From NCBI GenBank assembly GCA_046351255.1, contig JAXLYU010000009.1, forward strand, positions 293,975 through 357,974: a stretch of DNA of 64,000 nt, given 5' to 3'. Position 1 is the stretch's first letter; every line of letters begins with the position of its first letter. The translations under genes were made by a program, and so were the position numbers. Source of the stretch: Labilithrix sp. (GTDB taxonomy: Bacteria; Myxococcota_A; Polyangia; Polyangiales; Polyangiaceae). Under the pieces are notes generated by a model, which was not told the DNA's origin, ran no database searches, and saw only the letters and a list, made by a program, of their open reading frames with translations. Of this stretch, positions 1 to 15,717 are shown one piece after another.

Positions 1-2
1 GC

Positions 3-248
3 ACGCACGACTGCACGCCGGACGCGGACGGTCGCGTGTCGACGGGCGTCTCGCTCACGCCCGGTGACTTCTTCGGCTTCAAGGCGACGCTCACCGATTG
101 CAAGGTCACGGTCACCTACCTCGCGAGCGATCGGATCGTCGGCACGTTCACAGTCGAGGGCCACGCGCCCGAGGGCAGCAGCCTCGACGGCACGGTCTCG
201 AAGGCCACGGGCGCCTTCGACGTGCCGCTCGAGACGTCCAAGCTCTGA
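3..248 (+). CDS. 3' end of an upstream gene (partial C-terminal fragment, hypothetical protein)
   Basis: Open frame runs from the window edge to the stop at 246-248. The amino-acid composition looks protein-like (..TLTDCKVTVTYLASDRIVGTFTVEGHAPEGSSLDG..) and the gene has the same orientation as the operon downstream. No motif recognised. Confidence 0.4.
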   Translation, partial: THDCTPDADGRVSTGVSLTPGDFFGFKATLTDCKVTVTYLASDRIVGTFTVEGHAPEGSSLDGTVSKATGAFDVPLETSKL

Positions 249-267
249 GGACGTCTCCAAGGCGCGC

Positions 268-296
268 GCCGGGGGTTGCTTGCACTAGCCCCCGGC
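268..296 (+). terminator. GC-rich hairpin (8-bp perfect stem GCCGGGGG/CCCCCGGC, 13-nt loop) between the upstream gene stop and the WGR gene start
   Basis: Read directly from the sequence. There is no U-tract, so the role is ambiguous: a terminator for the upstream gene, or an attenuator or RNA-stability element for the operon. Confidence 0.35.
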
Positions 297-312
297 CGAT
301 ACGACGGGGGTC

Positions 313-1491
313 ATGCGTCGCTTCGAGCTCGTGGACGGCACGTCATCGAAATTCTGGGAGATCGACGTGGAGGGCAAGTCCACGACCGTTCGCTTCGGAA
401 AGATCGGGACGAACGGCCAGACCCAGACGAAGTCCTTCCCCACCGAGGCCAAGGCCCTCGCCGAGCGCGACAAGCTCGTTCGCGAGAAGACGGGCAAGGG
501 GTACGTCGAGAAGACGGGGACGGCGGCCGCTGCGCCCCTGGCCGCTCCGGCCGCCGCGCCCGCCGCGCCCGCCCCGAAGAAGAAGGCGGCCGCGAAGAAG
601 CCGCCAGCGGAGGCACCTCCGCCAGCGGCGGCCGGCTGGGTCCCCGCGGAGGACGGCTATGCGCTCGCGCTCCGGGACGGAAAGATCGTCGCGCGCAGCC
701 CGAAGGGCCAGGAGCTCTCGTCGGTCCCGAAGGACCTGAAGGCAGGCGCCGCGTACGGCGAGCTCGAGAACGTGAAGGAGTGGCTCCTCGCGCACGAGAA
801 GGAGTGCCTCGCCGAGGTCGAGACGTGGATGCTGCGCTCGCTCCCCACGCCGCGCGCGGTGCTCGCCGCCGTCTTCGAGGACGAGGCCTGGCGGAAGGCG
901 CTCGAGAACGCGGTCGTCGTTCCCGGCGGCGACGCGGAGGCGGGGCTCTTTCGCGGCGTCGATCCGGAGAAGGGGATCGGCCTGGTGACCCTCGACGGCG
1001 AGACGCGATGGACGCGCGCGGAGACGATCATGATCCCGCATCCCGTGCGCGTCCCCGAGCTCGACGACTTCCGGTCGCTCTCCGCCGAGCTCGGGCTCGT
1101 GCAGGGGATGAGCCAGCTCTTTCGCGAGACGTTCGCGCCGCCCGCGAGCCTCGACGCGTCGGCCACGACCGTGGGCGACTTCAAGAACGGGAAATTCCAG
1201 ATGCTCCAGCACGCGCTCGGCGTCGCGCGCAAGCACGGGTTCCGCGTCTCGGGCGGCAACGTCCTCTGCCGCGTGTGGCAGGAGGGGAAGGTGTTCGAGG
1301 CGCGCTACTGGATCGGCTCCGAGGACCCGACCATCGAGACGTACACGGACGACCTCCTCTGGGTCGACGAGAAGGAGCGGCCGATGAAGATCGCAGACGT
1401 GCACCCGGTCGCGTACTCGGAGGGCATGCGCATGGCGAGCCTCGTCTACGCCGCGCGCGTGATCGAGAAGACGGAAGAGGTGGCCTCGTGA
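313..1491 (+). CDS. WGR-domain protein (MolR-like N-terminus, 392 aa)
   Basis: N-terminus [44 protein letters not shown] closely matches the WGR domain consensus (W-G-R motif, here F-G-K-I-G). A Lys/Ala/Pro-rich linker and a C-terminal region of about 250 aa with unknown function follow. The stop overlaps the start of the next gene (GTGA at 1488-1491). Confidence 0.8.
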
Positions 1492-4400
1492 GCGGCCTCG
1501 AGGCGAGCGCGGTCGTCCGCGCGGGCGGCATCGTCCCCACGGACGCGAAGGTCAGCACCGACGTGCGCGTGGGCGAGGTGGCCGCGCGCCGCTACGCGCA
1601 TCCGGCGCTCCCGGGCCGCACGATCGTACGGATCATCCCGGATGTGATGGCGCCCGGCGCGGACGTGGAGATGGAGACGCTCGGCTTCGCGCGTGGTGAG
1701 GTGAGCGGCAAGCTGGGGAAGGGGCGCTTCCGGTCCCTCGGGTTCCCGGGCTGGGCGCTCGTCCACGACCCGGCGCGCGCGAAGTTCGCGCTCGAGGTCA
1801 TGAAGGACTTCAAGCGCGCCGCGAAGCAGGTGAAGAGCAAGCCCGGCAACGCGCGCGACGCGTTCGTCGAGATCGGAAAGCTCCTCGCCCGCTCCGTACC
1901 TCACTTCCTCCCCTCGTTCTGGGAAGAGGCGGGCCGGCGCTTCGTGGCGGAGGACTCCACCACCTTCGCGGCGCAGGCCTTCGAGAAGGCGCGGCAGGCC
2001 GAGAAGGAGCACGCGCTCCCCGTGGACGAGGACGTGCGCAGCGCCGTCTACCTCGAGTTCGCGCTCGCGGGCGCGATCGCCGCGAAGTCGCTCGCGGGCT
2101 ATGCGAAGGAGCTCGAGGAAGCGTACGGCGCAGAGGCCGCGTACCCGCGCTACCTCGAGCTCGCGACCCGGCGCGTCCTCGGCGGAATGCCGCCGTGGAC
2201 CGGGCTGGCGAAGGAGCTCCGCGCCCTCGCGAAGAGCGCCAAGAAGGACGTCGCCGCGGAGGACGACGCGTTCCTCGCCGCGATCCTCGACGCGCCCGCG
2301 ATCTCGCGCGCGCCTGGCGAGCTTTGGACCACGTACGAGCCCGCGATCGCGCGGCTCGCGAAGCGGTCGCCCGCGGTCCGGCGCCGGCTCCGCCACCTCT
2401 ACCCGGAGCCGTCGTCCCGCGCGAAGGACTTCGGCACGTGGTGGTTCGATCTGCTCGTGCGCACCGGCTCGCTCGAGGGCCTGTGGGACGAGAGCGTCGA
2501 TGCGGCGGAGGCGGAGGCGCCGGGCGCCACCGCCGAGTGGCTCGGAAAGGCGATCCGCTTCACGAAGGGTGCGCCGGCCCTCTTCGACCTCCTGCCGAAG
2601 CTCCTGCCGCGCCTCGTCCGCGAGGCGAAGCCGGTCGCGGTGCTATGCGCGACGGCGCGGCGGCAGGGCATCTCCCTCGACTTCGCCGAGACGCTGCTCG
2701 CCGCGGGAGCGCCGATCGCGGAGCCGCCGCGCTGGTGCAGCATCGATCTGGCGGAGCCGTTCACGTGCGATCCCGTCCACGTCGAGGCCGACGCCGTGCT
2801 CGGGCCGCGCCTGCTCCTCGCCATAGAGGACGTGCTCGGTACCCCCGAGTTCGAGGCCCGATCCTCGGGGAAGAAAGGCCTCGCGCGGGTGCGTCGCGCC
2901 TGGCTCGAGCGAGAGGTGGGGCGCCTCGAAGGGCGCTGCCTCGTCGAGCTCGGCTACGCCTGCGCGCGTCTGCAAGCGAAGGTGCGCCCGACGCTCTGGG
3001 CGGAGCACCCCGACCTCGTCCAGCGCGTGCAGGGCACCGACGTGGTGCCCGCGCTCACGCGCACGCTCCGCGGCGGCGTCTTCGCGGAGTGGACGTGGCC
3101 GGTCTACGAGGAGCTCGTGGCGCGCGAGAAGGTCGAGCTCAAGCTCGACGGCGCGTGGCCGTTCCCGGTCTTCCGGACCGCGACGAAGGGCTTCGTGCTC
3201 GGCGCGGACCGCATCCTCCTCGAGCACGACTTCGTCCTGCCTCCGAAGGCGTCCGTGCATCGCTGCGTCTTCATCGAAGGGGACCTCCTCGTCACGCTCT
3301 CCATCGTCGGCTCCACGATGCGAGCGTACTGGGCGTCGAGCCCGAACGATCTCTTCGACCTCGAGGGCTACCTCTACTGGCGCGATCTCCCGACGTCGGT
3401 CGCGGCCCCCGGCGGCGGCGTCTCGCTCGGCGAGCGCGCGATTCACCGCGGCGATCGCGTCATCAAGATCGGTAACGGGCTCGTCAGCGACGGCGAGACG
3501 CTCTGGACCTCCGGCTACGAGGACGGGCGCATGAAGCTGTTCGAGCTCGACCCGAAGACGGGCGCGAAGGGGCGTGCGTCCTGGCCGGCCTTCGTGCAGG
3601 CCGCCGCGAGCACGTCCGACGACACGTCCCGCTTGCACGCGGTCTCGCTCGCCCCCGCGCCGGAAGGCGTCACCGCGTCGCCGCTCGGTCAGAAGGACGG
3701 GCTCCTCGGCGTCTACGTCCGCGGGCCCGCCCTGCACGCCACCGGCGCGCGCGAGGTGGTGCGGATCGACGGCCTCCGATGGACCGGCACGGGGACCCAG
3801 GCGCCGTCCGCGCTCGCGACCTGGCCCGGCGACCCGGCCCCGCGCGCTGTCTTCCAGCGGCGCCAGCTCCGCGTGGACGGAGGCTACGGCACCCCCGAGC
3901 TCCATCTCGAGGACCCTGCCGGCGCCATCTTCGCCGCGCTCGGCCCCGAGACCCCGTACCGCGCCGGCTGGACCGCGCTGCCTCATCTCTCGCTGTGGTG
4001 CTACCTCCGCCCGCGCGACGAAGCGGCGAGCCGCGCCCTCCGCGCGATCTCCGACGCGACGGCGAAGGCCCTCCTCGAGGGCGACGTCCTCACCGTGCTC
4101 CCCGAGGTGAAGGCGAAGGCGCTCGCGGAAGGGATCGCGGCCATCGCCGCGCAGGCGGTCGCCTTCCGCGCGGACCTCGCCAAGCTCGCGGCCTCGACCA
4201 CCTCCGAGGCGAGCGCGGCGCCTGCCGCCAGCGCCACGACGGTCGAGGACTCGGAGCTCGCGGCCGCGCTCGGGCCTCTCATCGAGATGCGCCGCTGGTC
4301 GAGCTCGCAGGTCACCGACGAGATCGCCGCCATCTCGGACGCGGTCCGGGGCAAGGGCACGCGCTCGTTCTCCGAGAGCTGGGCACCGTGGGATCGGCTC

Positions 4401-6242
4401 GTCGGGCGCCTCCGCGGCGTCGCGCTCTTCGCGATGCTGCCGGGCACCTCGGCGGAGCATCGGGCCACCATCGCGGCGCTCCTCGAGGCGTTCGCGCCCA
4501 CGGTGTTCGTCGATCCGGCGTACCGCATCCGCTGGTTCGCGGGAAAGATGACCAGCGCCTCTCCCGCGCGTCCAGGGACGGCGCACACGTGGATCGCGGA
4601 GAGCGGAGGGAGCACGTACGTCTTCCGCGACCTGAACGCGATCGTGCCGACCGCCACCGAGTGGGACATCCAGGCGCTCGAGCTGCGCGCGGACGACGCC
4701 TTCGTCCCGCCGCCCGGCGTGACGATCCGCGAGGAGCGGAAGATCGTTCACGATGGCGACGCCGCCTTCCTCGCGGGCTTCGCCGAGATCGCGCGGCAAG
4801 CGCTGCCGGCCTGGGATAACGGCGCCGCCGACGCGTTCGCGGCCGAGGCGGGCGTCACCCGCGCAGAGGCGACGCTCGTGCTCGCTGGGATGCCGAACAT
4901 GCAGACATACGCGGCAGACTTCCTCGGGAAGGAGCTTCGCGAGAAGCTGGGGCTGAAGACCTCGGACGCGAAGATGGCGCGCGAGTCCCTCCAGGGCCTC
5001 CCGAAGTCGAAGCTCCTCGACGTCTACGCCCTCGCCGCGCCGGCCGACGCGCGCGATCTCGTCCGCCCCTGGTCCGAGAGCGGGCTCGCGCTCCGGCTCG
5101 GTCGCGCGTTCGGCGAGGTGTTCGGCGCGCGCGTGGCGCTGCGCGAGGAGATCGTCACGGCGTGCGAGCGCGAGCTCGACCCGCCGCTCGCCTCGACGAC
5201 GCTCCTCGCGGCCGTCGCGTCGAGCGGCGAGCCTTCCTTCTTCAGGCGCCCGGAGCCGACCTTCGACGCCGCCTTCAAGTGGCAGCAGAAGCCGCCGAGC
5301 GATGTCCTCTCTCCCGCCGCGCTCACGTCGCTCGTGGGGCTCGTCTCGTGGCTCTACCTCGCGCTGCCGAGCGGCGATCCCTACCGTGACGCGGTCCCGC
5401 GCCTCGCGACCGCGATCGATCAGCTCCTCGACGATCCCAAGCTCGTGCTCCCGCTCCGGTTCCTCCAGGGCACCGACGCGGCCGCCGTGCGCTCCCTCGT
5501 CGACCTCGTGCGCGGCGACCCTGCGCCCGTGACGCTGAACAACGACCCCGCGCTCCATGCGGTCGACAGCGGCGCGATCGCGGTCGGCACGTTCCGCGAG
5601 GGGACGACGGCGGGCTTCCTCTTCCGACCCGCGAAGGTCCGGCCCGAGGATCCGATCGGCCGCGCCATCGCCTCGTCGAACCTGCCGAGCTGGGGCATCG
5701 GGACGGGGATGGCCTGGAACGCGGTCGCGCTCCTCCGCTCGCGCGGTCTCCGCGCCATCGTCGCGCGGATCGCGAGCGGCGGGCTCCCCAAAGGCGCGTA
5801 CGAGGCGAATCCCTCCGTCTCGATGCCGGCGCTCGTCGGCGCCGTCGCCAAGGCGAAGAAGCTCTCCGAGGAGGCGGCGTGCCACTACCTCCAGCTCCTC
5901 GGGCTCCTCGAGCCGACGGCGAAGGCGGTCCAGACCTGGAACGGCTGGAAACCTGCACAATACAAGAAAACCTGCGAGGAGCTCCTCGCGAAGAAGCTCG
6001 TCGTCGCGGGCAAGCGCGAGCGCGCCGGACGAGAGGTCTTCCTCCCGGGGGCGTGGGAGAAGGGGCGGGAAAAGAACCTCCCCACCGAGGGCTGGAAGAA
6101 GGCGCTCTACGACGAGCGGGTCGAGGGCGGCGCGCTCGTCGTCCTGCCGCGCACGTTGCCGCTGCGGCCGCTCCCCGAGATCTGGACCGACGCCTGGAAG
6201 CGGATCGAAGCGGGCGACATCCCGAAGCTGGAAGAGGTCTGA
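1488..6242 (+). CDS. Giant hypothetical protein (about 1584 aa), candidate YehI/MolR-body-like (DUF4132-type?) partner of the MoxR-VWA cassette
   Basis: Continuous ORF in frame with the 276..6242 ORF. I take the GTG at 1488, which overlaps the WGR stop, as the start; an ATG at 1654 is an alternative. Composition is protein-like (not Arg-rich garbage) and the gene has the same frame economy and orientation as its neighbours. I recognise no catalytic motif. The family call rests on gene-neighbourhood analogy only. Confidence 0.6.
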
Positions 6243-6243
6243 G

Positions 6244-7416
6244 ATGGCGAAGAAGATCGAAGCGCCCGAGGCCGAGCAGGCGGCGCCGGCGGAGACCATC
6301 TGGGCCGAGGAGCTCGCCTTCCTGCGCCAGTGGGACGACGCCCCGCGACCGCCGGGCTGGCTCCTCTCTCCGCGCGCCGTCGTCACGTTCGTGATGGGCT
6401 CGAAGGACGAGAAGCTCGCGCTCCCGAAGACGGCGAAGACCGAGGGCCCGCGCACGCTCGCGATCACGGAGAAGTTCGTCGGCGAGCGCGCCATCGTCGA
6501 GCGCTCCGTGGTCACGCTCGCCGGCGAGCGTGGCCTCCTCCTCGTGGGCGAGCCAGGCACGGCGAAGTCGATGCTGAGCGAGCTCCTCGCCGCCGCCGTG
6601 TGTGGGACGAGCGCCCTCACGGTGCAGGGGACGGCGGGGACGACCGAGGACCAGCTCCGCTACGGATGGAACTATGCCCTGTTGCTCGCGAAGGGGCCTT
6701 CGCGCGAGGCGATGGTCCCTTCGCCGGTCCTCTCCGCGATGCGACGTGGCAGCATCGCGCGCGTGGAAGAGGTGACGCGCTGCCTCCCCGAGGTGCAAGA
6801 CGCCCTCGTCTCCATCCTCTCCGATCGGCGCATCGCCGTGCCGGAGCTCGCCGACGTCGCGGACGAGGCGCACGTCGAGCCGGCGCGGCCCGGCTTCAAC
6901 CTCATCGCCACCGCGAACCTCCGGGACCGCGGCGTGTCGGAGATGAGCGCGGCCTTGAAGCGTCGCTTCAACTTCGAGACGGTGCCGCCGATCCCGGATC
7001 TCGCGCGCGAGGTTCACCTCGTGAAGCGTCAGGCGACGACCATGCTCGCTCGCACGGGGGCGCCGATGAAGGTCGATGACGCCGTGCTCGAGGTGCTCGT
7101 CACCGCCTTCCGCGATCTGCGCGCAGGGCGATCGAAGGAGGGCTGGGCGGTGGAGAAGCCGAGCACCGTCATGAGCACCGCGGAGGCGGTGGGGGTGGCG
7201 GGCGCGATCGGTCTCCAGACCGCGTATTTCGCGAGCGATCGCGATCCGCTCACGCTCGTCCCCGGCTACCTCCTCGGCGTCGTGCTGAAGGACGATCCGA
7301 AGGATCGCGCACGGCTCCTCTCGTACTGGGACTCGGCCGTGAAGCGGCGCGCGGAGGACAAGCAGCGCGTCTGGCAGCAGCTCCTCGAGCTCCGCTCGGT
7401 GCTCGAGGAGGTCTGA
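6244..7416 (+). CDS. MoxR-family AAA+ ATPase (YehL-like)
   Basis: Walker A is LLLVGEPGTAKS. The Walker B region is GSIARVEEV. The MoxR-typical segments PEVQDALVSILSDRRIAV, GFNLIATAN and AALKRRF (Arg finger) are present. The ATG lies 1 nt after the upstream stop. Confidence 0.85.
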   Translation: MAKKIEAPEAEQAAPAETIWAEELAFLRQWDDAPRPPGWLLSPRAVVTFVMGSKDEKLALPKTAKTEGPRTLAITEKFVGERAIVERSVVTLAGERGLLLVGEPGTAKSMLSELLAAAVCGTSALTVQGTAGTTEDQLRYGWNYALLLAKGPSREAMVPSPVLSAMRRGSIARVEEVTRCLPEVQDALVSILSDRRIAVPELADVADEAHVEPARPGFNLIATANLRDRGVSEMSAALKRRFNFETVPPIPDLAREVHLVKRQATTMLARTGAPMKVDDAVLEVLVTAFRDLRAGRSKEGWAVEKPSTVMSTAEAVGVAGAIGLQTAYFASDRDPLTLVPGYLLGVVLKDDPKDRARLLSYWDSAVKRRAEDKQRVWQQLLELRSVLEEV

Positions 7417-7418
7417 GC

Positions 7419-10400
7419 GTGGAGCCCGCGTCGGCCGTCTCTCTGCTCGCGGGGAGCGTGGCGCCGTTCGTCATTGGCGTGCGCCACCACTCGCCCGCGT
7501 GCGCCGCCGCGATGCCCGTGCTCCTCGACGCGTTCGCGCCCGATCGCGTCCTCGTCGAGCTGCCGGCCGATCTCGATCCGTGGCTGCGGTGGCTCGCGCA
7601 TCCCGACACGAAGGCGCCGATCGCGCTTGCCGCCGCGAGCGAGGACGGCCGCCACCTGTCCTTCTATCCGTTCGCCGACTTCTCGCCCGAGCTCGCCGCC
7701 ATTCGCTGGGCCGCCGCGCACGGCGTGCCCGTCGAGGCCTTCGATCTGCCCGCCGGTGCGCGCGAGGGACGCCGTGCATCTCGCGCGACGCGCGCGGAGA
7801 GGGACTCGCTCGTCCGGCGGCTCTCGGAGGCCCACGACGCCGACGACGTCGAGTCGCTCTGGGATCGCATGGTCGAGGCGCGCGCGGTGAGCGGCGCGGA
7901 GGAGGCGACGCGTCGCGCCGCCCTCCTCTTCGGCTGGGCGCTCCGCGTCGACGAGCACGCCGCGGGCGGCGTCTCCGTCGAGGACCTCCGCCGCGAGGCG
8001 TACATGCGCCGGGCGCTCGCGAGGGCGAAGGGCCGTGTCGCCGCCGTCGTGGGCGCGTTCCACGGGGGCGCGCTCCTCGACGCGCCGATCCCGGCGCCGG
8101 TGCCGCCCGCGGACGAGGTGGTCCCGCGCCACGTGGTCTCCTCGCTCGTCCCGTATGCGTTCCCGCTCCTCGACTCGCGCTCCGGCTATCCGGCGGGCAT
8201 CCGCGATCCGATCTGGCAGCAGCGCGCGTACGAGGCGCTCGCCGCGGGGGGCGAGACCAGCGCGATCGTGGCGACCACGATGACGGAGATCGCGCGCGTC
8301 GTGCGCCGCCGTGGCCACGTGGCGTCGTTCGCGGACGTGAAGGAGGCGACGCGCCTCGCGCGCGACCTCGCGACCTTGCGTGCGCTGCCGGGGCCGGGAC
8401 GGCGCGAGCTCATCGAGAGCATCGAGAGCGCGATGCTGCAGGGCGAGCGGCTCGGGCGGGGGCGCATCGTGGCGCGCGCGCTCGAGGAGGTGCTCGTCGG
8501 TCAGGCGCGCGGGACCCTGCCGCGCGACGTGCCGCGCTCCGGGCTCGCGCCCCATGTGATCGCGCTCCTCGCGGAGGACGCGCTCCCGGGCCCGCCGGGG
8601 GAGGGCGCCTCGAAGGAGACGGTGCTCGATCCGCTCCGCTCGCACCTCGATCGGCGCCGGCAGCGGACGCTCGTCCGGCTCCGCACCGCGGGGATCCACT
8701 ACGCGGAGGAGGACGAAGATCGCGCCGGCGCCGGTGGCGGGGAGGCGCTCACGACGAGCTGGTCGATCCGCTGGAGCCCCACCACGGAGGCGACGATCGA
8801 GATCGCGAGCCTCCTCGGGGTGACGCTCGCACAGGCCGCGCGCGGCGCGCTCCTTCGCGACGTCGAGCGCGCGAAGGCCGAAGATCGCTGGGGCGCGGCC
8901 GCGCTCCTCGCCCACGTGCGCGCCGCCGCCGCGTGCGGCCTCGGCGAGCTCGTCACGGAGGGCCTCGCGCGCTTCGCGGACGAGGAGCTCGCCCACGCCG
9001 GTCTCTCGGAGGTGACCGCGCTCTCCGCGCTCGTCGACCGCCTCCTCCGCGGACACGTCTCGGCGCTGCCGGTGGAGCCGACGCCCGGCTTCGACTCGTT
9101 CGTCTTGCCGCCGAGCCTCCGCCGCGACGACGTCGCGCAGGCGCTCGTCCGCGCCGTCGAGGGCCTCGCCGGATCGACGCGCCTCGAGGACGCGCGCGCG
9201 CTTCTCGTCGTGGTCGAGCACCAGCTTCGTGAGCGTGATGCAGACGCGGACGACACCGCAGCGCGGAGTCGCGAGCCGTCCGAGATCCATCCTTTCGCCG
9301 ATGGCCGCATCGGCTTCGCGCTCGACACGCTCGCCCGTGACGGATCGCCGTTGATGCAGGGCGCGGGCGGCGCGGCCCGCGTCCTCCTCGGGCGCGAGGA
9401 CGCGGAGACGTTCGGCGTGCGTGTCGGCTCTTTCGTCGACGCGGGCGGGCCCGATCTCGCCGATCGCATGAAGGGCGCGCTGGTCCTCGGCCTGCCGCTG
9501 TTCGAGGCGCATCCCGGCTTCGCGGAGCGCCTCCTCGACCGACTCGAGGCGGTGGATGACCGCACGTTCCTCGAGCGCTTGCCTGCGCTCCGCGGCGGCT
9601 TCGCGGTGCTCGCGCCGGCCGCGCGAGAGCGCCTCCTCGCGGCGCTCGCGCCGAGGCTCGGCGACGGGCTCGGCGATCTCGAGAAGGCGCTCGAGCTCGC
9701 GAGCGGGCCCGAGCTCGCGGCCCGCGCGGCGCGAGCGGATGACGCCGCACGCGCCGCCGTCGCCGCGCTCGGCCTCGCTCTCCCACCGGCTCCCGCGCCT
9801 CGGTCCGCGCCGGGTCCACGCCCGCGCCGGAGCGCTCCTGGCTCGGCGATCTCGCTCGCGGATCGGATCCGGCTCGCGCTCGGGCGCGAGAACGAGAAGC
9901 TCGCGCCGCGCTCGCTCCCCTACGCCATCGCGCTCGACGAGCTCTACGGCCGCGGGCGAGGCGAGGGCTCGCGCCAGCTCGGCCCGCGCGGCGGCAAGGA
10001 CGCGCCGTTCCCGACGGTGCGCGAGTGGGCGGAGGAGCTCGAGGCGCTCTTCGGCGCAGCCGTGCGCGAGGAGATCCTCGGCGAGGCGGCGGGCGCGGGT
10101 CGACCCGCGGCCGCGCTCATGCTGGACCCCGACGTGGTGCGCCCCTCCGTCGAGCTCCTCGAGCAGGTGCTCTCGCTGAAGGGCGGCCTCGCGGAGCGCG
10201 ACCTCCATCGCCTGCGGGCCCTCGTGCAGCGCATCGTCGACGCGCTCGTCGAGGCCCTCGCGGTACGGGTCCGTCCCGCGCTCACGGGCCTCGTCACGGC
10301 GGCGCCCACGCGCCGCGCGATCGGACCGCTGGATCTGCGGCGAACCGTGCTCGCGAACCTGCGCACCGCGCGTCGCGCGGACGATGGCTCCGTCGCGATC

Positions 10401-10940
10401 GTCGCGGAGCGCCTCTTCTTCCGGCAACGCGCGAAGCGATCGCTCGACTGGCGCATCGTCCTCGTCGTCGACGTGTCCGGGTCGATGGAGGCATCCGTCA
10501 TCTACAGCGCGATCATGGCCGCGATCCTGAGCGCGCTCCCCGCGATCACGGTTCATTTCGTCGCGTTCAATACGACGGTGATGGATCTCTCCGAGCGCGT
10601 CGACGATCCGCTCGGCCTCCTGCTCGAGATCTCCGTCGGCGGCGGCACCGACATCGGACGAGGTCTTCGCTACGCGCGCGGCCTCGTGAAGGTGCCGCAG
10701 CGCACGATCGTCGTCGTGGTCTCGGACTTCGAGGAGGGGGCCTCGGTGCCCGCGCTCGTGGCGGAGGTGCAGGCCCTCGCGGAGAGCGGCGTCCGCGTGC
10801 TCGGCCTCGCCGCCCTCGATGATCGTGGTGCGCCGCGCTACCACGCGGGCGTCGCGAAGCGCATCGCGGACGCGGGCGCCTCCGTCGCCGCGCTCACTCC
10901 ACTCGAGCTCTGCCGCTGGGTCGGAGAGCAGATCCGCTGA
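7419..10940 (+). CDS. Large protein with a C-terminal von Willebrand factor A (VWA/MIDAS) domain and an N-terminal uncharacterised region (DUF5682-like; YehM+YehP-like fusion)
   Basis: The C-terminus carries a complete MIDAS: LVVDVSGSM (DxSxS), GGGTDIGRGL (Thr) and VVVVSDFEEG (Asp). The N-terminal roughly 900 aa are Ala/Leu/Arg-rich with no motif I can name. The GTG start is 2 nt after the MoxR stop. Confidence 0.8.
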   Translation: MEPASAVSLLAGSVAPFVIGVRHHSPACAAAMPVLLDAFAPDRVLVELPADLDPWLRWLAHPDTKAPIALAAASEDGRHLSFYPFADFSPELAAIRWAAAHGVPVEAFDLPAGAREGRRASRATRAERDSLVRRLSEAHDADDVESLWDRMVEARAVSGAEEATRRAALLFGWALRVDEHAAGGVSVEDLRREAYMRRALARAKGRVAAVVGAFHGGALLDAPIPAPVPPADEVVPRHVVSSLVPYAFPLLDSRSGYPAGIRDPIWQQRAYEALAAGGETSAIVATTMTEIARVVRRRGHVASFADVKEATRLARDLATLRALPGPGRRELIESIESAMLQGERLGRGRIVARALEEVLVGQARGTLPRDVPRSGLAPHVIALLAEDALPGPPGEGASKETVLDPLRSHLDRRRQRTLVRLRTAGIHYAEEDEDRAGAGGGEALTTSWSIRWSPTTEATIEIASLLGVTLAQAARGALLRDVERAKAEDRWGAAALLAHVRAAAACGLGELVTEGLARFADEELAHAGLSEVTALSALVDRLLRGHVSALPVEPTPGFDSFVLPPSLRRDDVAQALVRAVEGLAGSTRLEDARALLVVVEHQLRERDADADDTAARSREPSEIHPFADGRIGFALDTLARDGSPLMQGAGGAARVLLGREDAETFGVRVGSFVDAGGPDLADRMKGALVLGLPLFEAHPGFAERLLDRLEAVDDRTFLERLPALRGGFAVLAPAARERLLAALAPRLGDGLGDLEKALELASGPELAARAARADDAARAAVAALGLALPPAPAPRSAPGPRPRRSAPGSAISLADRIRLALGRENEKLAPRSLPYAIALDELYGRGRGEGSRQLGPRGGKDAPFPTVREWAEELEALFGAAVREEILGEAAGAGRPAAALMLDPDVVRPSVELLEQVLSLKGGLAERDLHRLRALVQRIVDALVEALAVRVRPALTGLVTAAPTRRAIGPLDLRRTVLANLRTARRADDGSVAIVAERLFFRQRAKRSLDWRIVLVVDVSGSMEASVIYSAIMAAILSALPAITVHFVAFNTTVMDLSERVDDPLGLLLEISVGGGTDIGRGLRYARGLVKVPQRTIVVVVSDFEEGASVPALVAEVQALAESGVRVLGLAALDDRGAPRYHAGVAKRIADAGASVAALTPLELCRWVGEQIR

Positions 10941-12648
10941 TGCTCCGCGCGGCGCCCACGCTCCTGTCGGCCCTCGCCGCGGCGGCGCCCGCGCGCGTCG
11001 TGAAGAAGCTCGACGCGGACCGCGAGGTCGCGCGGAGCTGGACGTGGATGGTCGGCCCCGACGGCGGCACGGTCGCGATCGCGGGCGGTGAGACGGTGAC
11101 CGTCCGCGCGAGCGACGGGCTCGTCACCGAGCCGACGGCGTTCACGTGCTCGTGTCTCCTCACGCCGCGCTGCTTTCACGTGCTCGGCGGTCGCGGCGGC
11201 GCTCGAGGTCTCGCTCGACGACGCGCCGGCGCCGGCCGCGGCCGCGCCCGCCCCCAGCGCCGGCGACCGCGGTCGCCGTGGACGCCTCGCGGCGCGCGGT
11301 GGCGGAGCGCGCGCGCGCCGTGACGTCGGACGTTCTCGCCGCTGGCGCGCGTGGCGTGGGCACGATCCTCGAGGGCGAGCTCCTCCGCGTGGTCCACCTC
11401 GCGCGCGTGGCCGGGCTTCATCGGCTCGCGGCGGCTGGCCTGCGCGTGGCGCGCGACGTGCGCGATCTCGCGTCCGAGGCGGACGACTTCGACGCGAACG
11501 CGCTCGTCGAGGATCTCCGCGAGCTCTCGGTCACCGCACAGCTCTTGAGCCGCGACGAGGTCACGCCCGACGTCATCGGCGTCGCGCGCCGGGCGTACGA
11601 GCGGATCGGTCACCTCCGTCTCGTCGGCCTCGCCTCCGAGCCCGTCGTGGCGGGGCGAGGCTACGGCGGCGTCGTCACGCACGTCATCGCGGACGACGGC
11701 ACGCTCTACTCCATCAGCGACGTGATGCCTGGCGGCGAGGCGCGCGCCCGCGGCGCCTACGACGGCTCTCTCGTGATGGGCGACACGACGATCACGCATC
11801 GTGCCCTCTCGCGTGGCGGCCTCTTCGTCCAGGACGCGACCTCCTCCGAGGATCATCGCCTCGGCGCGGGCAAGGACGTGAAGGCGGTCCGCGCCGCGAA
11901 CGAGGCGGGCTGGGCGGCGCCCGCGATCCGCGCGCGCTTCGAGGAGCCGCTCGCCGCGCAGCTCGCCCGCGCCTACGACGCGCTCGGGATCCCGGCCACG
12001 CGACGCTCGCGCGGCGCGACCCTCGTCTTCCTCCGCGGTCACGTCGTCGGACACGACGCCTCCGCGCTGCTCGTCGCGGGCGAGGGCGGCCCTGTGCGGC
12101 TCATCGCGCCTCCATCGCACGGGACGCTCTTCACATTCGAGAACATCCGCCAGCTCTCGAGCGCGGAGGGGCTCGGGCTCGAGGTCCTCGCCGATCTCGT
12201 CCCCGACGCGCCGCGCACGCTCGCGCTCGTGGCCTTCGGGCCATGGGCGAAGGACGCCGCGCCCGTACGCCTCGTCCTCCCGCCCGAGTGGCGCGGCGTG
12301 GTGAACGCCGGCTATGACGTCATCCAGGGCTCGCACCTCGAGGGCCGCGCGTCGCGCTCCGCGGCCGCGGCTCCGCCCGCGGAGGCCGTCTTCGATCCGC
12401 TCTCGCCGCTGCGTCGCCGCATCGTACGCGTCGCGCTCCTCGGCACTCGGAGCCTCCCGCCGGAGGCGACGGCAGAGATCGATGCCGATCGCGTCGCCCT
12501 CGGGCGCCTCTTCATGTTCGGCGCGGTCGAGGTCCTCGGCGCGCTCTCCGCGGGCGCCCGCCGGCGCGGAGAGCTTCGGGACGCCTGGCTCGCGGCCGCG
12601 ACCTACGCGCATGCGGCGAGCATCGCCCTCTGGCGTGACGCCTGGTGA
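10940..12648 (+). CDS. SWIM zinc-finger protein (YehQ-like); reading frame disrupted around 11160-11290 (frameshifted or pseudogene, or sequence error)
   Basis: The start ATG overlaps the upstream stop (TGATG). The N-terminal ORF 10940-11323 contains FTCSCLLTPRCFHV, a CxCx5CxH SWIM motif. It then runs into an Arg/Gly low-complexity stretch and a stop. The long protein-like ORF 11146-12648, in the +2 frame, carries the rest (..VAVDASRRAVAERARAVTSDVLAAG.. through ..IALWRDAW). The third frame would read CFHVLAVAAALEV, which is a more canonical continuation after the SWIM motif. Confidence 0.6.
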
Positions 12649-12658
12649 GAGTACATCG

Positions 12659-14143
12659 GTGAGTCCATGGCATGATGCTCTCGTGCCAGCTCCTGCCTCG
12701 CCGTCACCTCCGCTCGTCGCGGCCCTCGATGCGCTCTTCGGTCGTAGCCCCGACGCCGTCGTGCTGCTCGGCGCCGGAGGGGAGACGCTCTATCGAAACG
12801 ATGCCGCCGGAGCCGATCCGTGGGCGGCCGGGCGGAGCGAGGTCGATGCCGCGCTGCCCTCCGTGCTCGCGGGTGAGGCGGTGCAGCTCGAGGCCGGGGA
12901 CACCGGACCGAGCGGCGTCCGTAGCTGGTACGCGTGCACGTTGTCGCCGGTGAGCGAAGGCGGCGCCGTCGTCGGCGTGCTCGCGGTGTCGAAGGACCTC
13001 ACCGCGCTCAAGCGATCGGAGGCGCGCCTTCGCCGGAGCGAGCAGCTCTTGGTCGACACGCAAGGCGTCGCCCATCTCGGCACGTGGGAGTGGGACATCA
13101 GCGAGCCGCACGCGGTGTGGTCGGCGGAGCTCTATCGCATCTATGGGCTCACGCCCGAGTCGTACACGCCGAGCTACGAGGCCTACCTCACGAAGATCCA
13201 CCCCGACGATCGCGAGCGCGTCATGGAGGCGACCAACCGAGTCTTCGAGGAGCACGTCCCGTACTCGCACGACGAGCGGATCTTCCGGCCGGACGGCTCG
13301 CTGCGGTACCTGCATACCTGGGCGTTCCCCGTGCTCGACGAGGCCGGCCAGCTCCGCAAGCTCGTCGGAGTCTGTCAGGACATCACGGATCGGAAGGTGG
13401 CGGAGGAGGAGGTCCATCGCCTCAACGAGAGCCTCGAGCTGCGCGTCGCCGAGCGGACGCGTACCATCGAGCGGTCGCTGAAGGACCTCGAGGCGTTCCA
13501 GGCGATGGTGAGCCACGACCTCCGCGCGCCGCTCTCCGTGATCTCCGGGAGCTGCGGCCTCCTCGAGCAGGAGCGAGGACACCTCCCCGCGACCGCCTCG
13601 AAGAACGTCGAGCGCATCCAGCGCGCGGTCTCGCAGATGACGCGGCTCGTGAACGATCTGTTGACCCTGGCGCACGTGGGCAACTCGCCGCTCGAGATGG
13701 CCGAGATCGATCTCTCGGCGCTCTGCGACGACATCGTCGCGAACCTCCGGCAGAGCTCCACCTCCGTCTCGCCGGCGGTGGTGTCAATCGAGCCGGGCCT
13801 GAAGTGTCGTGGCGACGCGGCGTTCGTCCGGACGATCCTCGAGAATCTCCTCGGCAACGCGTGGAAGTACTCCTCGCGTGTTCCGGCCCCTCGCATCGAG
13901 GTCGGCGCCAGGCCCCACGAGGACGAGGTCGCCTTCTACGTGAAGGACAACGGCGTCGGCTTCGACATGAAGGACGCGGATCGGATCTTCGCGCCGTTCG
14001 AGCGCCTGCATCGGGCGACCGAGTTCGCGGGGACGGGCGTCGGCCTCGCCGCCGTGCATCGCATCGTCGAGCGCCACGGCGGGCGCATCTGGGTCGACAG
14101 CGCCCCCGGGCAGGGCGCGTCGTTCTCGTTCACGCTCGCGTGA
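12659..14143 (+). CDS. PAS-domain sensor histidine kinase (cytoplasmic)
   Basis: PAS-like region (WEWDISEPHAVWSAELYRIYG..IHPDDRERV). H-box is MVSHDLRAPL. N-box is LLGNAWKYS. G1 is KDNGVGFD and G2 is GTGVGLAAV. The GTG at 12659 is in frame and no receiver domain is present. Confidence 0.8.
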   Translation: MSPWHDALVPAPASPSPPLVAALDALFGRSPDAVVLLGAGGETLYRNDAAGADPWAAGRSEVDAALPSVLAGEAVQLEAGDTGPSGVRSWYACTLSPVSEGGAVVGVLAVSKDLTALKRSEARLRRSEQLLVDTQGVAHLGTWEWDISEPHAVWSAELYRIYGLTPESYTPSYEAYLTKIHPDDRERVMEATNRVFEEHVPYSHDERIFRPDGSLRYLHTWAFPVLDEAGQLRKLVGVCQDITDRKVAEEEVHRLNESLELRVAERTRTIERSLKDLEAFQAMVSHDLRAPLSVISGSCGLLEQERGHLPATASKNVERIQRAVSQMTRLVNDLLTLAHVGNSPLEMAEIDLSALCDDIVANLRQSSTSVSPAVVSIEPGLKCRGDAAFVRTILENLLGNAWKYSSRVPAPRIEVGARPHEDEVAFYVKDNGVGFDMKDADRIFAPFERLHRATEFAGTGVGLAAVHRIVERHGGRIWVDSAPGQGASFSFTLA

Positions 14144-14250
14144 GCGTTGCAGCGTCGTGGATCGGCGCCCGCATCGTGGACCGGCGTTCGGCACGGCGAG
14201 AAGTCTTGCTCGAAGCACGCAAAATCGAGGCGCCGAGCTAGCATGGCGCG

Positions 14251-15717
14251 GTGAATCAGCATCGAGTGTGGGGAATCGCGATCGTGGCCGCTTCGGGCGC
14301 GCTTGGCTGTGCGGAGACGTATACGCCGCGGCCAGCGGCGGGCTTCGCGGCGAACGCAGGGCCGCTCACGTCGGCCTATGCCGCCGCCGAGACGCATGCG
14401 GACCCCGAGGCGGGGCGCGCGGGCACGCCGCTGCCGCCGAAGGCGGTCGAGCTGTTCGGCGCCGAGACGGTGCGCGCGGGCTCTCCGCCGGGTCCCACCA
14501 TGAACCTCGAAGAGATCGTGCGGCTCGCGGTGCTCCGCGATCCGGCGATCCGCGCGGCGTTGGCGGACGTCGAAGCGGCGAAGGCCGACGTGGTGCGCTC
14601 GCGCACGCTGCCGAACCCGACCGTCCTTGCCACCCAGTCGCTCGTGCCGTTCCCCGGGCGGCCGTTCACGGAGGAGAAGACGGGAGGTCCGCCGCAGCTC
14701 GACGTCATCCTCGGCTATGCCCTCGATCGCATCGTCTTCGGCAAGCGCGGCGCGGCGGTCGCGCGGGACAAGCTCGCGGTCGACGCCGCGAGCGCGGCGC
14801 ACGCGGATCGTATCCGCACGCGCGTCGCCGAGGCGGTGACGGCGTACGTCGACGTCCTGCAGACGCGAGCGCTCTGGGTCCTGGCGACCGAGGTCTACGG
14901 TCACGCTCGCCGTCTGCAAGCGGTGACGAACGCGCGCAACGGCGACACGGCGGCGGCCGAGCTCGGACGCGTCCGGATCTACCACCTCACGACGCACCGC
15001 GCGGTGATGCACACGGCGGCCGATCTCGACAGCGCCCGTGCGCGCCTCCGCGAGCGCCTCGCGCTGCAGCCCGACGAGCCGACCCCGGAGCCGGCCGGCT
15101 TTCCCATCGTCGATCATCCCGCGCCGCCGCCGTCGGAGGAAGAGGCGATCCGCGAGGCGTTCGCGGCCCGGCCCGATCTCGAGGGGAGCCGCCGCGACGC
15201 CGAGCGCGCGCGTTCGGCGGTGGTCTCGGAGAAGCGCGAGGGCCTACCCGTCCTCGGCGTGGTCGGCATCGTCTCGCATCAGTTCCAGTCGCAGGCGCTC
15301 GGCGCGCCGAACGTGTGGTCCTACGGCTTCGGCCTCTTCGGCACGCTCCCGGTGCTCGATCGCAACCAGGGCGGCATCGCGCGCGCTCGTGCGACGGTGA
15401 CGCTCGCCGACGCGAACCAGTCCTCCACCGCGCTGCGCGTGGAGTCCGAGGTGCGCACCGCTCTTGCGGAGTACCGCGCGGCGTATCAAGCCATCATCGA
15501 GGGCAACGAGGGCCTCCTGCGCGGCGCGGCCGAGATGCGCTCCGGCATCCGCGACGCCTACGCGGCGGGCGCGAAGAGCCTCGTCGAGGTGCTCGACGCC
15601 GAGCAAGCCTTCTCCGACGCCATGCGCCTCGAGATCGAGGAGGAGGCCGGCTACATCCGCGCGTACCACCTCCTCAACGCCGCGGTCGGCCGCGCCATCC
15701 TCTCGAGCGAGCCCTGA
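14251..15717 (+). CDS. TolC-family outer-membrane efflux protein (outer membrane factor lipoprotein)
   Basis: The signal peptide ends at LGCAE (lipobox). The two-repeat coiled-coil/beta-barrel architecture of OMF proteins is present (..LTLEEAVRLAL-like NLEEIVRLAVLRDPAIRAA..; ..GAKSLVEVLDAEQA..YHLLNAAVGRA). Confidence 0.75.
   Translation: MNQHRVWGIAIVAASGALGCAETYTPRPAAGFAANAGPLTSAYAAAETHADPEAGRAGTPLPPKAVELFGAETVRAGSPPGPTMNLEEIVRLAVLRDPAIRAALADVEAAKADVVRSRTLPNPTVLATQSLVPFPGRPFTEEKTGGPPQLDVILGYALDRIVFGKRGAAVARDKLAVDAASAAHADRIRTRVAEAVTAYVDVLQTRALWVLATEVYGHARRLQAVTNARNGDTAAAELGRVRIYHLTTHRAVMHTAADLDSARARLRERLALQPDEPTPEPAGFPIVDHPAPPPSEEEAIREAFAARPDLEGSRRDAERARSAVVSEKREGLPVLGVVGIVSHQFQSQALGAPNVWSYGFGLFGTLPVLDRNQGGIARARATVTLADANQSSTALRVESEVRTALAEYRAAYQAIIEGNEGLLRGAAEMRSGIRDAYAAGAKSLVEVLDAEQAFSDAMRLEIEEEAGYIRAYHLLNAAVGRAILSSEP

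Follow-up and report, generated by a model that had tools for sequence, protein, structure and literature searches.

Pairs formed by a MoxR-type AAA+ ATPase and a von Willebrand factor type A (VWA) protein include RavA-ViaA, CbbQ-CbbO, NorQ-NorD, CoxD-CoxE, and CobS-CobT, in which the gene for an AAA_5/MoxR ATPase adjoins a gene for a VWA protein with an intact metal ion-dependent adhesion site (MIDAS). A YehL subfamily of MoxR proteins has been named in the literature (PMC3893208), and in Escherichia coli K-12 the corresponding region is annotated as yehF (WGR), yehH (pseudogene; yehF/yehH is molR), yehI (DUF4132), yehK, yehL (MoxR), yehM, yehP (VWA), and yehQ (SWIM). The window analyzed here, a stretch of 64,000 nucleotides (nt) from the Labilithrix sp. 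contig JAXLYU010000009.1 (positions 293,975 to 357,974), contains five consecutive genes, g1 to g5, at 313-12648 on the plus strand, as are all features given below within them. Comparisons among loci showed that these genes are predicted to encode one conserved five-protein system in the YehL branch of the MoxR-VWA AAA+ machines. They are treated as one system because the gene order is kept, fusions of g1 with g2 exist, and the stop and start codons of adjacent genes overlap or nearly overlap. That MoxR-VWA systems of the YehL subfamily exist is already known; for the fixed five-gene architecture, and for the convergence of PafBC, LexA, and DdrO control described below, no description was found in the searchable literature.

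Listing and translation of open reading frames (ORFs) gave g1 at 313-1491 (a WGR plus DUF4132 protein of 392 amino acids [aa], with a homolog found ahead of the giant in 73 of 79 loci), g2 at 1488-6242 (the 1584-aa giant protein, a putative multidomain scaffold belonging to no Pfam family), g3 at 6244-7416 (a 390-aa MoxR-type AAA+ ATPase of the YehL subfamily), and g4 at 7419-10940 (a 1173-aa fusion of DUF5682 and VWA, the equivalent of YehM plus YehP). The g5 gene, for a SWIM-like zinc-motif protein, spans 10940-12648 and is frame disrupted. The GTG start of g2 lies inside a GTGA overlap with g1 (1488-1491), g2 and g3 are separated by 1 nt (6242/6244), g3 and g4, on one strand, by 2 nt (7416/7419), and g4 and g5 meet at TGATG (10938-10942). 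The region is 70-76% G+C, and no internal promoters or terminators above chance were found within 1-13200. A preliminary description, made from the sequence alone, had proposed five genes with these junctions; this was correct for g1 to g4 and incorrect for g5, whose 1709 nt contain no single ORF.

The same description had likened the locus to the E. coli molR-yehI-yehLMPQ neighborhood, and the likeness holds for some genes only. In blastp comparisons, g3 was 50% identical to YehL over 378 aa, the full length (E = 1e-114), the WGR domain of g1 was 40% identical to YehF, and the two halves of g4 matched YehM (28% identity, E = 2e-24) and YehP (38%, E = 2e-57), respectively, which confirms the proposal that a YehM-like region and the VWA partner are fused here; YehM itself matched Pfam DUF5682 at E = 2e-98. 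The correspondence did not detectably extend to g2 and YehI or, beyond the zinc motif, to g5 and YehQ. Homology of g2 to YehI, the yehH product, YehM, or YehQ was rejected on the lack of any blastp or hhalign signal (for the g2 profile against YehI, hhalign E = 0.39). No blastp match joined g5 to YehQ, and hhalign against the single YehQ sequence gave E = 0.097; the two have in common their 3' position and an N-terminal CxC..CxH motif. Both clusters place WGR (YehF) and DUF4132 (YehI) upstream and a zinc-motif protein at the 3' end, all on one strand. YehM and YehP are separate proteins in E. coli but fused in g4, and the E. coli proteins with DUF4132 have a length of about 1200 aa and carry the domain near the C terminus, whereas the window has DUF4132 in g1, followed by a separate giant. 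Neither yehK nor the E. coli LexA-type box has an equivalent in the window. So the core common to the window and E. coli appears to consist of DUF4132, a YehL-type MoxR protein, DUF5682, VWA, and a zinc-motif protein at the 3' end, and the 1584-aa protein is, as judged from these alignments, particular to the window-type variant and not part of the E. coli one.

By analogy with the MoxR-VWA pairs named above, ATP-driven remodeling of a MIDAS-held client would be the expected common principle. The locus differs from them in the YehL subfamily membership of g3, with a Glu-Glu Walker B motif, in the position of its VWA domain behind a 900-aa DUF5682 body, and in having three extra conserved partners (the DUF4132 protein, the giant, and the zinc-motif protein) with no known client enzyme nearby. 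Midasin (Rea1/Mdn1), which has six AAA modules and acts on pre-60S ribosomes, is similar in that AAA_5 modules and a long helical body go together with a MIDAS domain at the C terminus, which holds substrates so that they can be removed mechanically; it is, however, a single eukaryotic polypeptide of about 4700-4900 residues, whereas the window parts are on separate genes and have no ribosome link. The MoxR-VWA ternary conflict systems (VMAP and β-propeller types) likewise combine MoxR, VWA, and a third large protein, and g2 has a propeller-like region. Unlike those systems, the window proteins showed no VMAP or effector-associated domains, and the match of g3 to Pfam bpMoxR is below the cut-off (23.2 bits against 27, covering aa 73-121 only).

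Synteny was assessed by tblastn with the window proteins against the 79 loci. The order g1-g2-g3-g4-g5 recurred in nearly all loci with enough flanking sequence, in agreement with the earlier proposal that the five genes form one conserved unit. These loci came from several phyla and included Myxococcota, Actinomycetota (among them Dactylosporangium, Catellatospora, Micromonospora, Streptomyces, Kitasatospora, Catenulispora, and Saccharothrix), Planctomycetota, Acidimicrobiales, and a Selenomonadaceae metagenome-assembled genome (MAG); the same order was found on a Riflebacteria contig and on a 9.9-Mb Polyangiaceae chromosome. Six loci from Kofleriaceae, Haliangiales, and Planctomycetaceae (L010, L012, L016, L017, L020, and L029) had g1-g2 without g3-g5 within 9-10 kb downstream, the next genes being unrelated, and a few g2 homologs of 2013-2032 aa were joined to DUF4132. 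Locus comparison showed g1 and g2 as a pair that appears to travel together, directly upstream of g3. A permuted order, g3-g4-g5-g1-g2, occurred in a Polyangiales MAG (L063, 2149-12007) that contained the closest relatives, within the genome collection, of g3 (86%), g4 (64%), and g5 (58-70%), and in Luedemannella helvata (L064, 10001-19551) two tandem giant genes of about 4.8 kb each preceded g3. A gene for a 692-aa HEAT-repeat protein lay directly 5' of g1 in two Streptomyces loci (L085, 6933-9016; L076, 6867-8911), and a PafBC-like motif with one mismatch marked the 5' end of this gene; the gene was not conserved elsewhere and was rejected as a sixth component. The family was found in 12 of 72,556 plasmid records, mostly megaplasmids of 0.4-5.7 Mb with one chromosome-sized record of 11.85 Mb, and in none of 50,697 phage records. 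Together with the PADLOC searches, these results indicate that the family is not a mobile defense island.

The ATPase proved intact, as originally described. The g3 product matched Pfam AAA_5 (E = 4.6e-39), and its Walker A motif, GEPGTAKS (aa 102-109, 6547-6570), was invariant in 9 of 9 aligned sequences, as were IATAN (N225) and KRRF (R240/R241), corresponding to sensor 1 and the arginine finger. The Walker B acidic pair, E175-E176 (6766-6771), is EE rather than DE and was also invariant, including in E. coli YehL; this Glu-Glu pair may be a signature of the YehL subfamily. Identities of 65-86% across phyla made g3 the most conserved of the five proteins (g2 was the least, at 29-48%), and its closest solved relatives were the AAA domains of midasin (E = 2.6e-7).

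The g4 product matched Pfam DUF5682 over aa 34-918 (E = 1e-145) and ended in a VWA domain (aa 947-1168, 10257-10922; Pfam VWA_CoxE, E = 4.4e-54, full model length). Its MIDAS motif, D1018-V-S1020-G-S1022 (10470-10484), was read from the translation and alignment; across 54 homologs, E. coli YehP among them, the conservation of DxSxS, GGGTD, and SDF was at least 95%, so that the complete MIDAS VWA domain claimed for the end of this protein is present. Searches of PDB sequences and profiles with the whole protein and with its N-terminal domain gave no match. When the N-terminal ~270 residues of 25 DUF5682 proteins, YehM among them, were aligned, the invariant columns (G20, R22, H23, H24, E47, PFADFSPE at 84-91, R192, E193, M196, G212, and H215) marked an N-terminal domain (aa 16-220, 7464-8078) that is a candidate hydrolase-type domain resembling TraB/Tiki/ChaN. 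The order GxxH, E, R..M, GxxH recalls that superfamily. E. coli YbaP carries the same four motifs, with spacings of 29 residues between the first two and 24 between the last two (27 and 22 in g4). Matches to Pfam TraB_PrgY_gumN (E = 0.0057) and ChaN (E = 0.1) were weak and were each found in 1 of the 25 members, and hhalign against a YbaP family alignment (E = 0.029-0.073) covered only the last motif pair, RE..M..G..H. Whether the conserved His/Glu motifs form a TraB/Tiki-like hydrolase site is a matter of roughly even chances, and such a site is put forward solely as a hypothesis.

No Pfam, NCBIfam, or PADLOC model matched g2. Its conservation, named earlier as a check on whether the giant ORF is genuine, was evident from 438 homologs, nearly all of which, among the matches listed, were full length at 1530-1660 aa. 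An exhaustive HMMER search with the N-terminal half gave 707 clusters at 50% identity (407 with E ≤ 1e-30), and a scan of one genome per species placed relatives in at least 581 species genomes. AlphaFold2 models, each built with a 61-sequence alignment, were made of aa 1-905 (predicted local distance difference test [pLDDT] score, 92.4; predicted template modeling [pTM] score, 0.80) and aa 906-1584 (pLDDT, 92.3; pTM, 0.89). In the modeled N-terminal half, a small α/β unit is followed by an all-α region resembling a tetratricopeptide repeat (TPR) or solenoid (aa 88-530, 1749-3077, by DSSP) and then by a β-rich, propeller-like region (aa 550-830, 3135-3977; DSSP strands at 552-818). The most conserved motifs by invariant columns, GFPxW (aa 85-89) and a second at aa 138-147, lie in or at the all-α region. 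Foldseek matches were weak for both regions (kinesin light chain TPR domains at E = 0.04-0.07 for the first; BBS1, prolyl-oligopeptidase, DDB1, and WD40 propellers at E = 0.014-0.1 for the second). Helical bundles alternate with β-sandwich-like units in the modeled C-terminal half, in which a highly conserved domain (about aa 1442-1518, 5811-6041) resembles a winged helix and gave weak Foldseek matches to MarR-type winged helices. Neither half matched any PDB structure at E ≤ 0.001 by Foldseek, no significant match to an enzyme fold was obtained with the models, and the g2 profile matched no PDB sequence. From these models it is concluded that g2 is probably a scaffold or adaptor without a recognizable catalytic fold. 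No prior description of this family, which lacks a Pfam model, was found in the searchable literature. On a Streptomyces sp. NBC_00984 megaplasmid (L089, 8986-13905), a g2 homolog is named "DNA-binding protein" by NCBI, by annotation only, and its neighbors are annotated as a DUF4132 domain-containing protein, an AAA family ATPase, a DUF5682 family protein, and a hypothetical protein.

Within g1, the WGR domain named in the preliminary description (aa 3-68, 319-516) was recovered with Pfam PF05406 (E = 1.6e-19) and, alone among the parts of g1, matched a PDB sequence (2ra8, E = 1.4e-12). It is followed by an Ala/Pro/Lys-rich linker read from the translation (aa 69-131, 517-705) and by a DUF4132 domain (aa 132-310, 706-1242; Pfam PF13569, E = 4e-19, full model length). 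The DUF4132 domain of g1 had been overlooked and had been placed in the large protein instead, which the Pfam searches contradict. Most g1 homologs are DUF4132-only proteins of about 300 aa, and WGR, an accessory domain of one small subclade, was present in just 6 of 73; the workings of the family therefore cannot be defined by it. Many myxobacterial homologs (L009, L010, L012, L015, L016, L017, L020, L023, L027, L032, and L050) carry in place of WGR a Lys/Ala-rich, histone H1-like N-terminal tail (e.g., MAKAKAKPKAAKKVAKPSKPK...). The WGR domain and this tail may be interchangeable nucleic acid-binding heads.

Frame A of g5, which includes the zinc motif, ends at a stop at 11323, and the rest is read in another frame (11146-12648, about 1.4 kb); a plot of G+C content at third codon positions (GC3) showed the same switch. 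Homologs of g5 are single ORFs of 518-705 aa, mostly 560-660 aa, with CFHVLAV..AALE at the position of the frame switch. A database search found an intact 569-aa allele (P0241), on a contig (L088) of a near-identical strain from another sample with 98% DNA identity to the window. Pairwise DNA alignment with that contig located two indels at 11186-11256, namely an extra G at about 11186 (CTCGGCGG in the window versus CTC-GCGG) and 2 missing nt at about 11255 (CGCCCC--CAGCG in the window versus CGCCCCCGCGGCG). Joining 10940-11185, 11187-11255, and 11257-12648, with 11186 skipped and 11256 skipped as a stand-in for the 2-nt deletion, gave a reconstructed 568-aa product to which P0241 is 97% identical over 100% of the length. 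By alignment, the zinc motif CxCx5CxH reads C70-S-C72-LLTPR-C78-F-H80 (11147-11179), and C70, C72, C78, and H80 were invariant in 31 of 31 family members. The SWIM zinc finger assigned earlier stands as regards this motif but not as regards an intact gene. The Pfam SWIM model (PF04434) did not match the reconstructed product even at E ≤ 1; PF04434 was found, however, in two g5 homologs, and NCBI names a minority of those listed "SWIM zinc finger family protein." Sequence and profile searches of g5 against PDB gave no match.

Upstream of g1, the family showed a DNA-damage regulatory signature, in the form of predicted promoters, that had not been foreseen. The PafBC motif is tGTCgg(N10)tA(N3)T, in which GTC is strictly conserved and the 3' part is -10-like (PMC8635444). 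Exact TGTC-N12-TAnnnT matches on the coding strand were present 53-121 nt upstream of the g1 homology start in 28 of 33 actinobacterial loci, compared with 0 of 26 non-actinobacterial loci and a background of 12 other matches in 1.6 Mb (7.5e-6 per nt). Three of the five actinobacterial loci without the exact motif had the same layout with CAnAAT as the -10. The N12 spacer differed between genera, with both ends and the spacing fixed. Because the positive loci are phylogenetically related, a binomial P value overstates their independence, but they still represent at least 12 genera and four families. In an independent Streptomyces megaplasmid locus, the sole match in 22.9 kb lay 86 nt upstream of the annotated DUF4132 start. 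A LexA-type Cheo box (GAAC-N4-GTTC) was not enriched over background upstream of actinobacterial g1 genes. The actinobacterial orthologs resemble members of the PafBC (RecA-NDp) regulon in carrying the motif at the expected place; the window differs in being non-actinobacterial and in having no PafBC motif near g1, and no listing of the operon in a published PafBC regulon was found in the literature.

Two other damage regulators govern genes that are related to these or have domains in common with them. In E. coli, molR is a member of the LexA regulon (PMC8533742) and appears in a review's list of LexA genes for which an SOS box is known (PMC6590174), and CTGGATAAAATTACAG was found 10 nt upstream of the yehF/molR ATG. 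In Deinococcus radiodurans, DR2173 (WGR) and DRA0165-0166 (DUF4132) are strongly derepressed on DdrO depletion (PMC8533742). Mutation of hns/stpA upregulates E. coli yehL and yehM, and an intergenic region of theirs is bound by H-NS (PMC3686432); silencing of the MoxR half at the yehK-yehL gap (L007, 16290-16597) may be independent of molR, which LexA controls. Two related Myxococcales or Polyangiales MAGs (L008, about 8795-8815; L014, about 8798-8818) have, directly 5' of the g1 start, a near-palindrome, GACGAA-N6-TTCGTC (containing GAAT/GAAA-CTCG-GTTC), that could be an operator and is not present in the window.

The reading favored here, which taken as a whole is judged to have an even chance of being right, is that the system is an ATP-driven remodeling complex tied to DNA damage, for example one clearing DNA-associated proteins. 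By analogy with RavA-ViaA, CbbQ-CbbO, NorQ-NorD, CobS-CobT, and midasin, g3 would form a hexameric ring ATPase coupled via g4 to a client, the MIDAS site of g4 would grip an acidic residue of that client, and ATP hydrolysis would pull or remodel it. The g1-g2 pair and g5 would serve as a dedicated scaffold, sensor, or client, with the WGR domain or Lys/Ala-rich tail, the winged helix, and the zinc motif as candidate nucleic acid contacts. A role in the DNA damage response, such as remodeling or removing protein complexes on damaged DNA, is proposed because of the PafBC promoters in Actinomycetota, the LexA box of molR, and the DdrO control in Deinococcus.

Several observations weigh against this reading. 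Dyad enumeration in 26 upstream regions found no damage-type operator upstream of g1 in the window or other Myxococcota, so that the damage link is carried over from other phyla. The PafBC sites were predicted from sequence, and the PafBC regulon comprises about 150 genes, not all of which are repair genes. The LexA box in E. coli governs molR, whereas yehL and yehM lie further downstream and are silenced by H-NS/StpA (PMC3686432), and the Deinococcus WGR and DUF4132 genes are alike in domains only. The searches revealed no repair enzyme domain, whether nuclease, helicase, glycosylase, or other, and the TraB/Tiki-like assignment of the g4 N-terminal domain is statistically insignificant. Winged-helix and SWIM modules can mediate protein-protein contacts instead of DNA binding. 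Finally, g5 is disrupted in the window, so the copy there may be inactive; activity of this copy of the operon depends on the g5 indels.

Among the alternatives, the one judged most probable is that the system is decaying in the source genome, g5 being a true pseudogene and the operon no functional five-part machine even though the family is one. The indels of +1 and -2 nt, 68 nt apart, break the frame after residue 82 and lead to the stop at 11323, and the 97%-identical strain keeps the gene intact. On the other side, each indel falls within a run of G or C, a typical context for errors of assembly and sequencing; the other four genes, 10.6 kb together, show no disruption; and the remaining 1.4 kb aligns undisrupted to homologs (32-41% identity) and full length to the 97%-identical allele. 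Decay is considered a serious possibility, if less likely than not. That the five genes are unrelated neighbors, or that the giant ORF is a chance open frame, might be suspected in DNA of 70-76% G+C, which gives many long spurious ORFs, and from the lack of a Pfam match for g2. This explanation has virtually no probability left and is already refuted by the 438 giant-protein homologs, nearly all full length among those listed, the 48 invariant columns in the 61-sequence g2 alignment, the AlphaFold2 pLDDT of 92, and the synteny kept across phyla; a spurious giant ORF was thereby ruled out. A more far-reaching version of the favored reading holds that these genes, molR/yehI/yehLMPQ included, constitute an unrecognized damage-response machine, in which a MoxR-MIDAS motor would be brought to damaged DNA by the DUF4132, giant, and zinc-motif proteins and would pull out or process proteins trapped there, perhaps by means of a TraB/Tiki-like hydrolase site within the DUF5682 body, and which LexA, PafBC, and DdrO would have recruited independently. 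In this full form the idea is tentative and rather unlikely.

Two further explanations concern function, and both are improbable to the same degree. The system could be a nucleoside triphosphate (NTP)-dependent conflict system directed at phages or mobile elements, as the preliminary description had suggested, with MoxR-VWA switching on a giant-based sensor or effector; control by damage regulons would then reflect the sensing of induced prophages or incoming DNA. The literature regards MoxR-VWA ternary systems as conflict systems (PMC10910872), and the subthreshold bpMoxR match of g3, the propeller-like region of g2, a weak match of the g1 WGR domain to PADLOC WGR_XIII (E = 1e-5), a weak match of one g4 homolog to VMAP-M8 (E = 0.041), and the H-NS silencing of E. 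coli yehL and yehM, as is frequent for horizontally acquired genes, would all fit. The suggestion was nonetheless not borne out: no PADLOC model (PADLOC-DB v2) matches g2 to g5, searches turned up no toxic effector domain (nuclease, protease, TIR, pore, or other), and the phage and plasmid counts given above (0 of 50,697 and 12 of 72,556 records, the latter mostly megaplasmids) also speak against it. The upstream flank common to several Dactylosporangium species suggests stable vertical chromosomal inheritance, and the 65-86% identity of g3 across phyla would be unusually conservative for a fast-evolving defense gene. Alternatively, the complex could be a maturation or metal-cofactor insertion chaperone like CoxD-CoxE, NorQ-NorD, CbbQ-CbbO, CobN-CobS-CobT, or BchH-I-D, in which the MoxR-VWA motor would load or activate g2, itself the client or the catalytic subunit. 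Class I chelatases consist of an AAA+ motor, a VWA adaptor, and a protein of >1200 aa, a layout that the locus resembles, and the VWA domain of g4 falls in the CoxE-type family of Pfam (E = 4e-54) and has a weak cobaltochelatase NCBIfam match. Those MoxR-VWA pairs that have been characterized are presented as maturation factors with a chaperone-like role (PMC3893208), and molR was named for a molybdate utilization phenotype, according to the citation of Lee et al. 1990 in PMC8533742. However, g2 was unlike CobN/BchH or any metalloenzyme by Pfam, NCBIfam, and PDB profile searches, with no cofactor-binding fold recognized, and no candidate metalloenzyme is conserved beside the operon, the flanks differing between loci. 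D. radiodurans moeA and moeB are not coregulated with the WGR and DUF4132 genes (PMC8533742), and control by three different DNA-damage regulons would be unexpected for a cofactor maturation chaperone.

Outside the five genes, the 64-nt gap separating the stop of the upstream gene (246-248) from the g1 start contains a GC-rich plus-strand hairpin (268-296) with an 8-bp stem (GCCGGGGG/CCCCCGGC) and a 13-nt loop (TTGCTTGCACTAG). The ViennaRNA fold of 246-315 had an energy of -30.9 kcal/mol, and in a 97%-identical contig (L004) the stem is preserved with a single change in the loop. The hairpin may be a terminator of the upstream gene or a leader element, and its membership in the system is uncertain. 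Downstream of g5 are an unassigned ORF (12934-14241), the position of which is occupied in L088 by a PAS histidine kinase, and an outer membrane efflux protein (Pfam OEP, 14251-15717); both were rejected as a sixth component, being unrelated to the system, as is a hybrid histidine kinase at 20035-22002.

In the literature searched, no experimental characterization of the system was found, consistent with the earlier statement that its relatives have no demonstrated function: nothing was found on DUF5682, yehL, yehM, yehP, and yehQ appeared only in lists, and none of the papers on DUF4132 was functional. MoxR-VWA pairs rank among the AAA+ systems with the widest distribution, but their known clients are few; since the MoxR subfamilies were defined, the YehL branch, with six E. 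coli K-12 genes among its members, has been assigned no function. Were the broader damage-response machine real, it would be a functional counterpart of the eukaryotic AAA+-plus-protease routes that clear protein roadblocks. With the comparisons made here, what had been a gap in annotation becomes a specific hypothesis that lends itself to testing in E. coli, Streptomyces, or Myxococcus.

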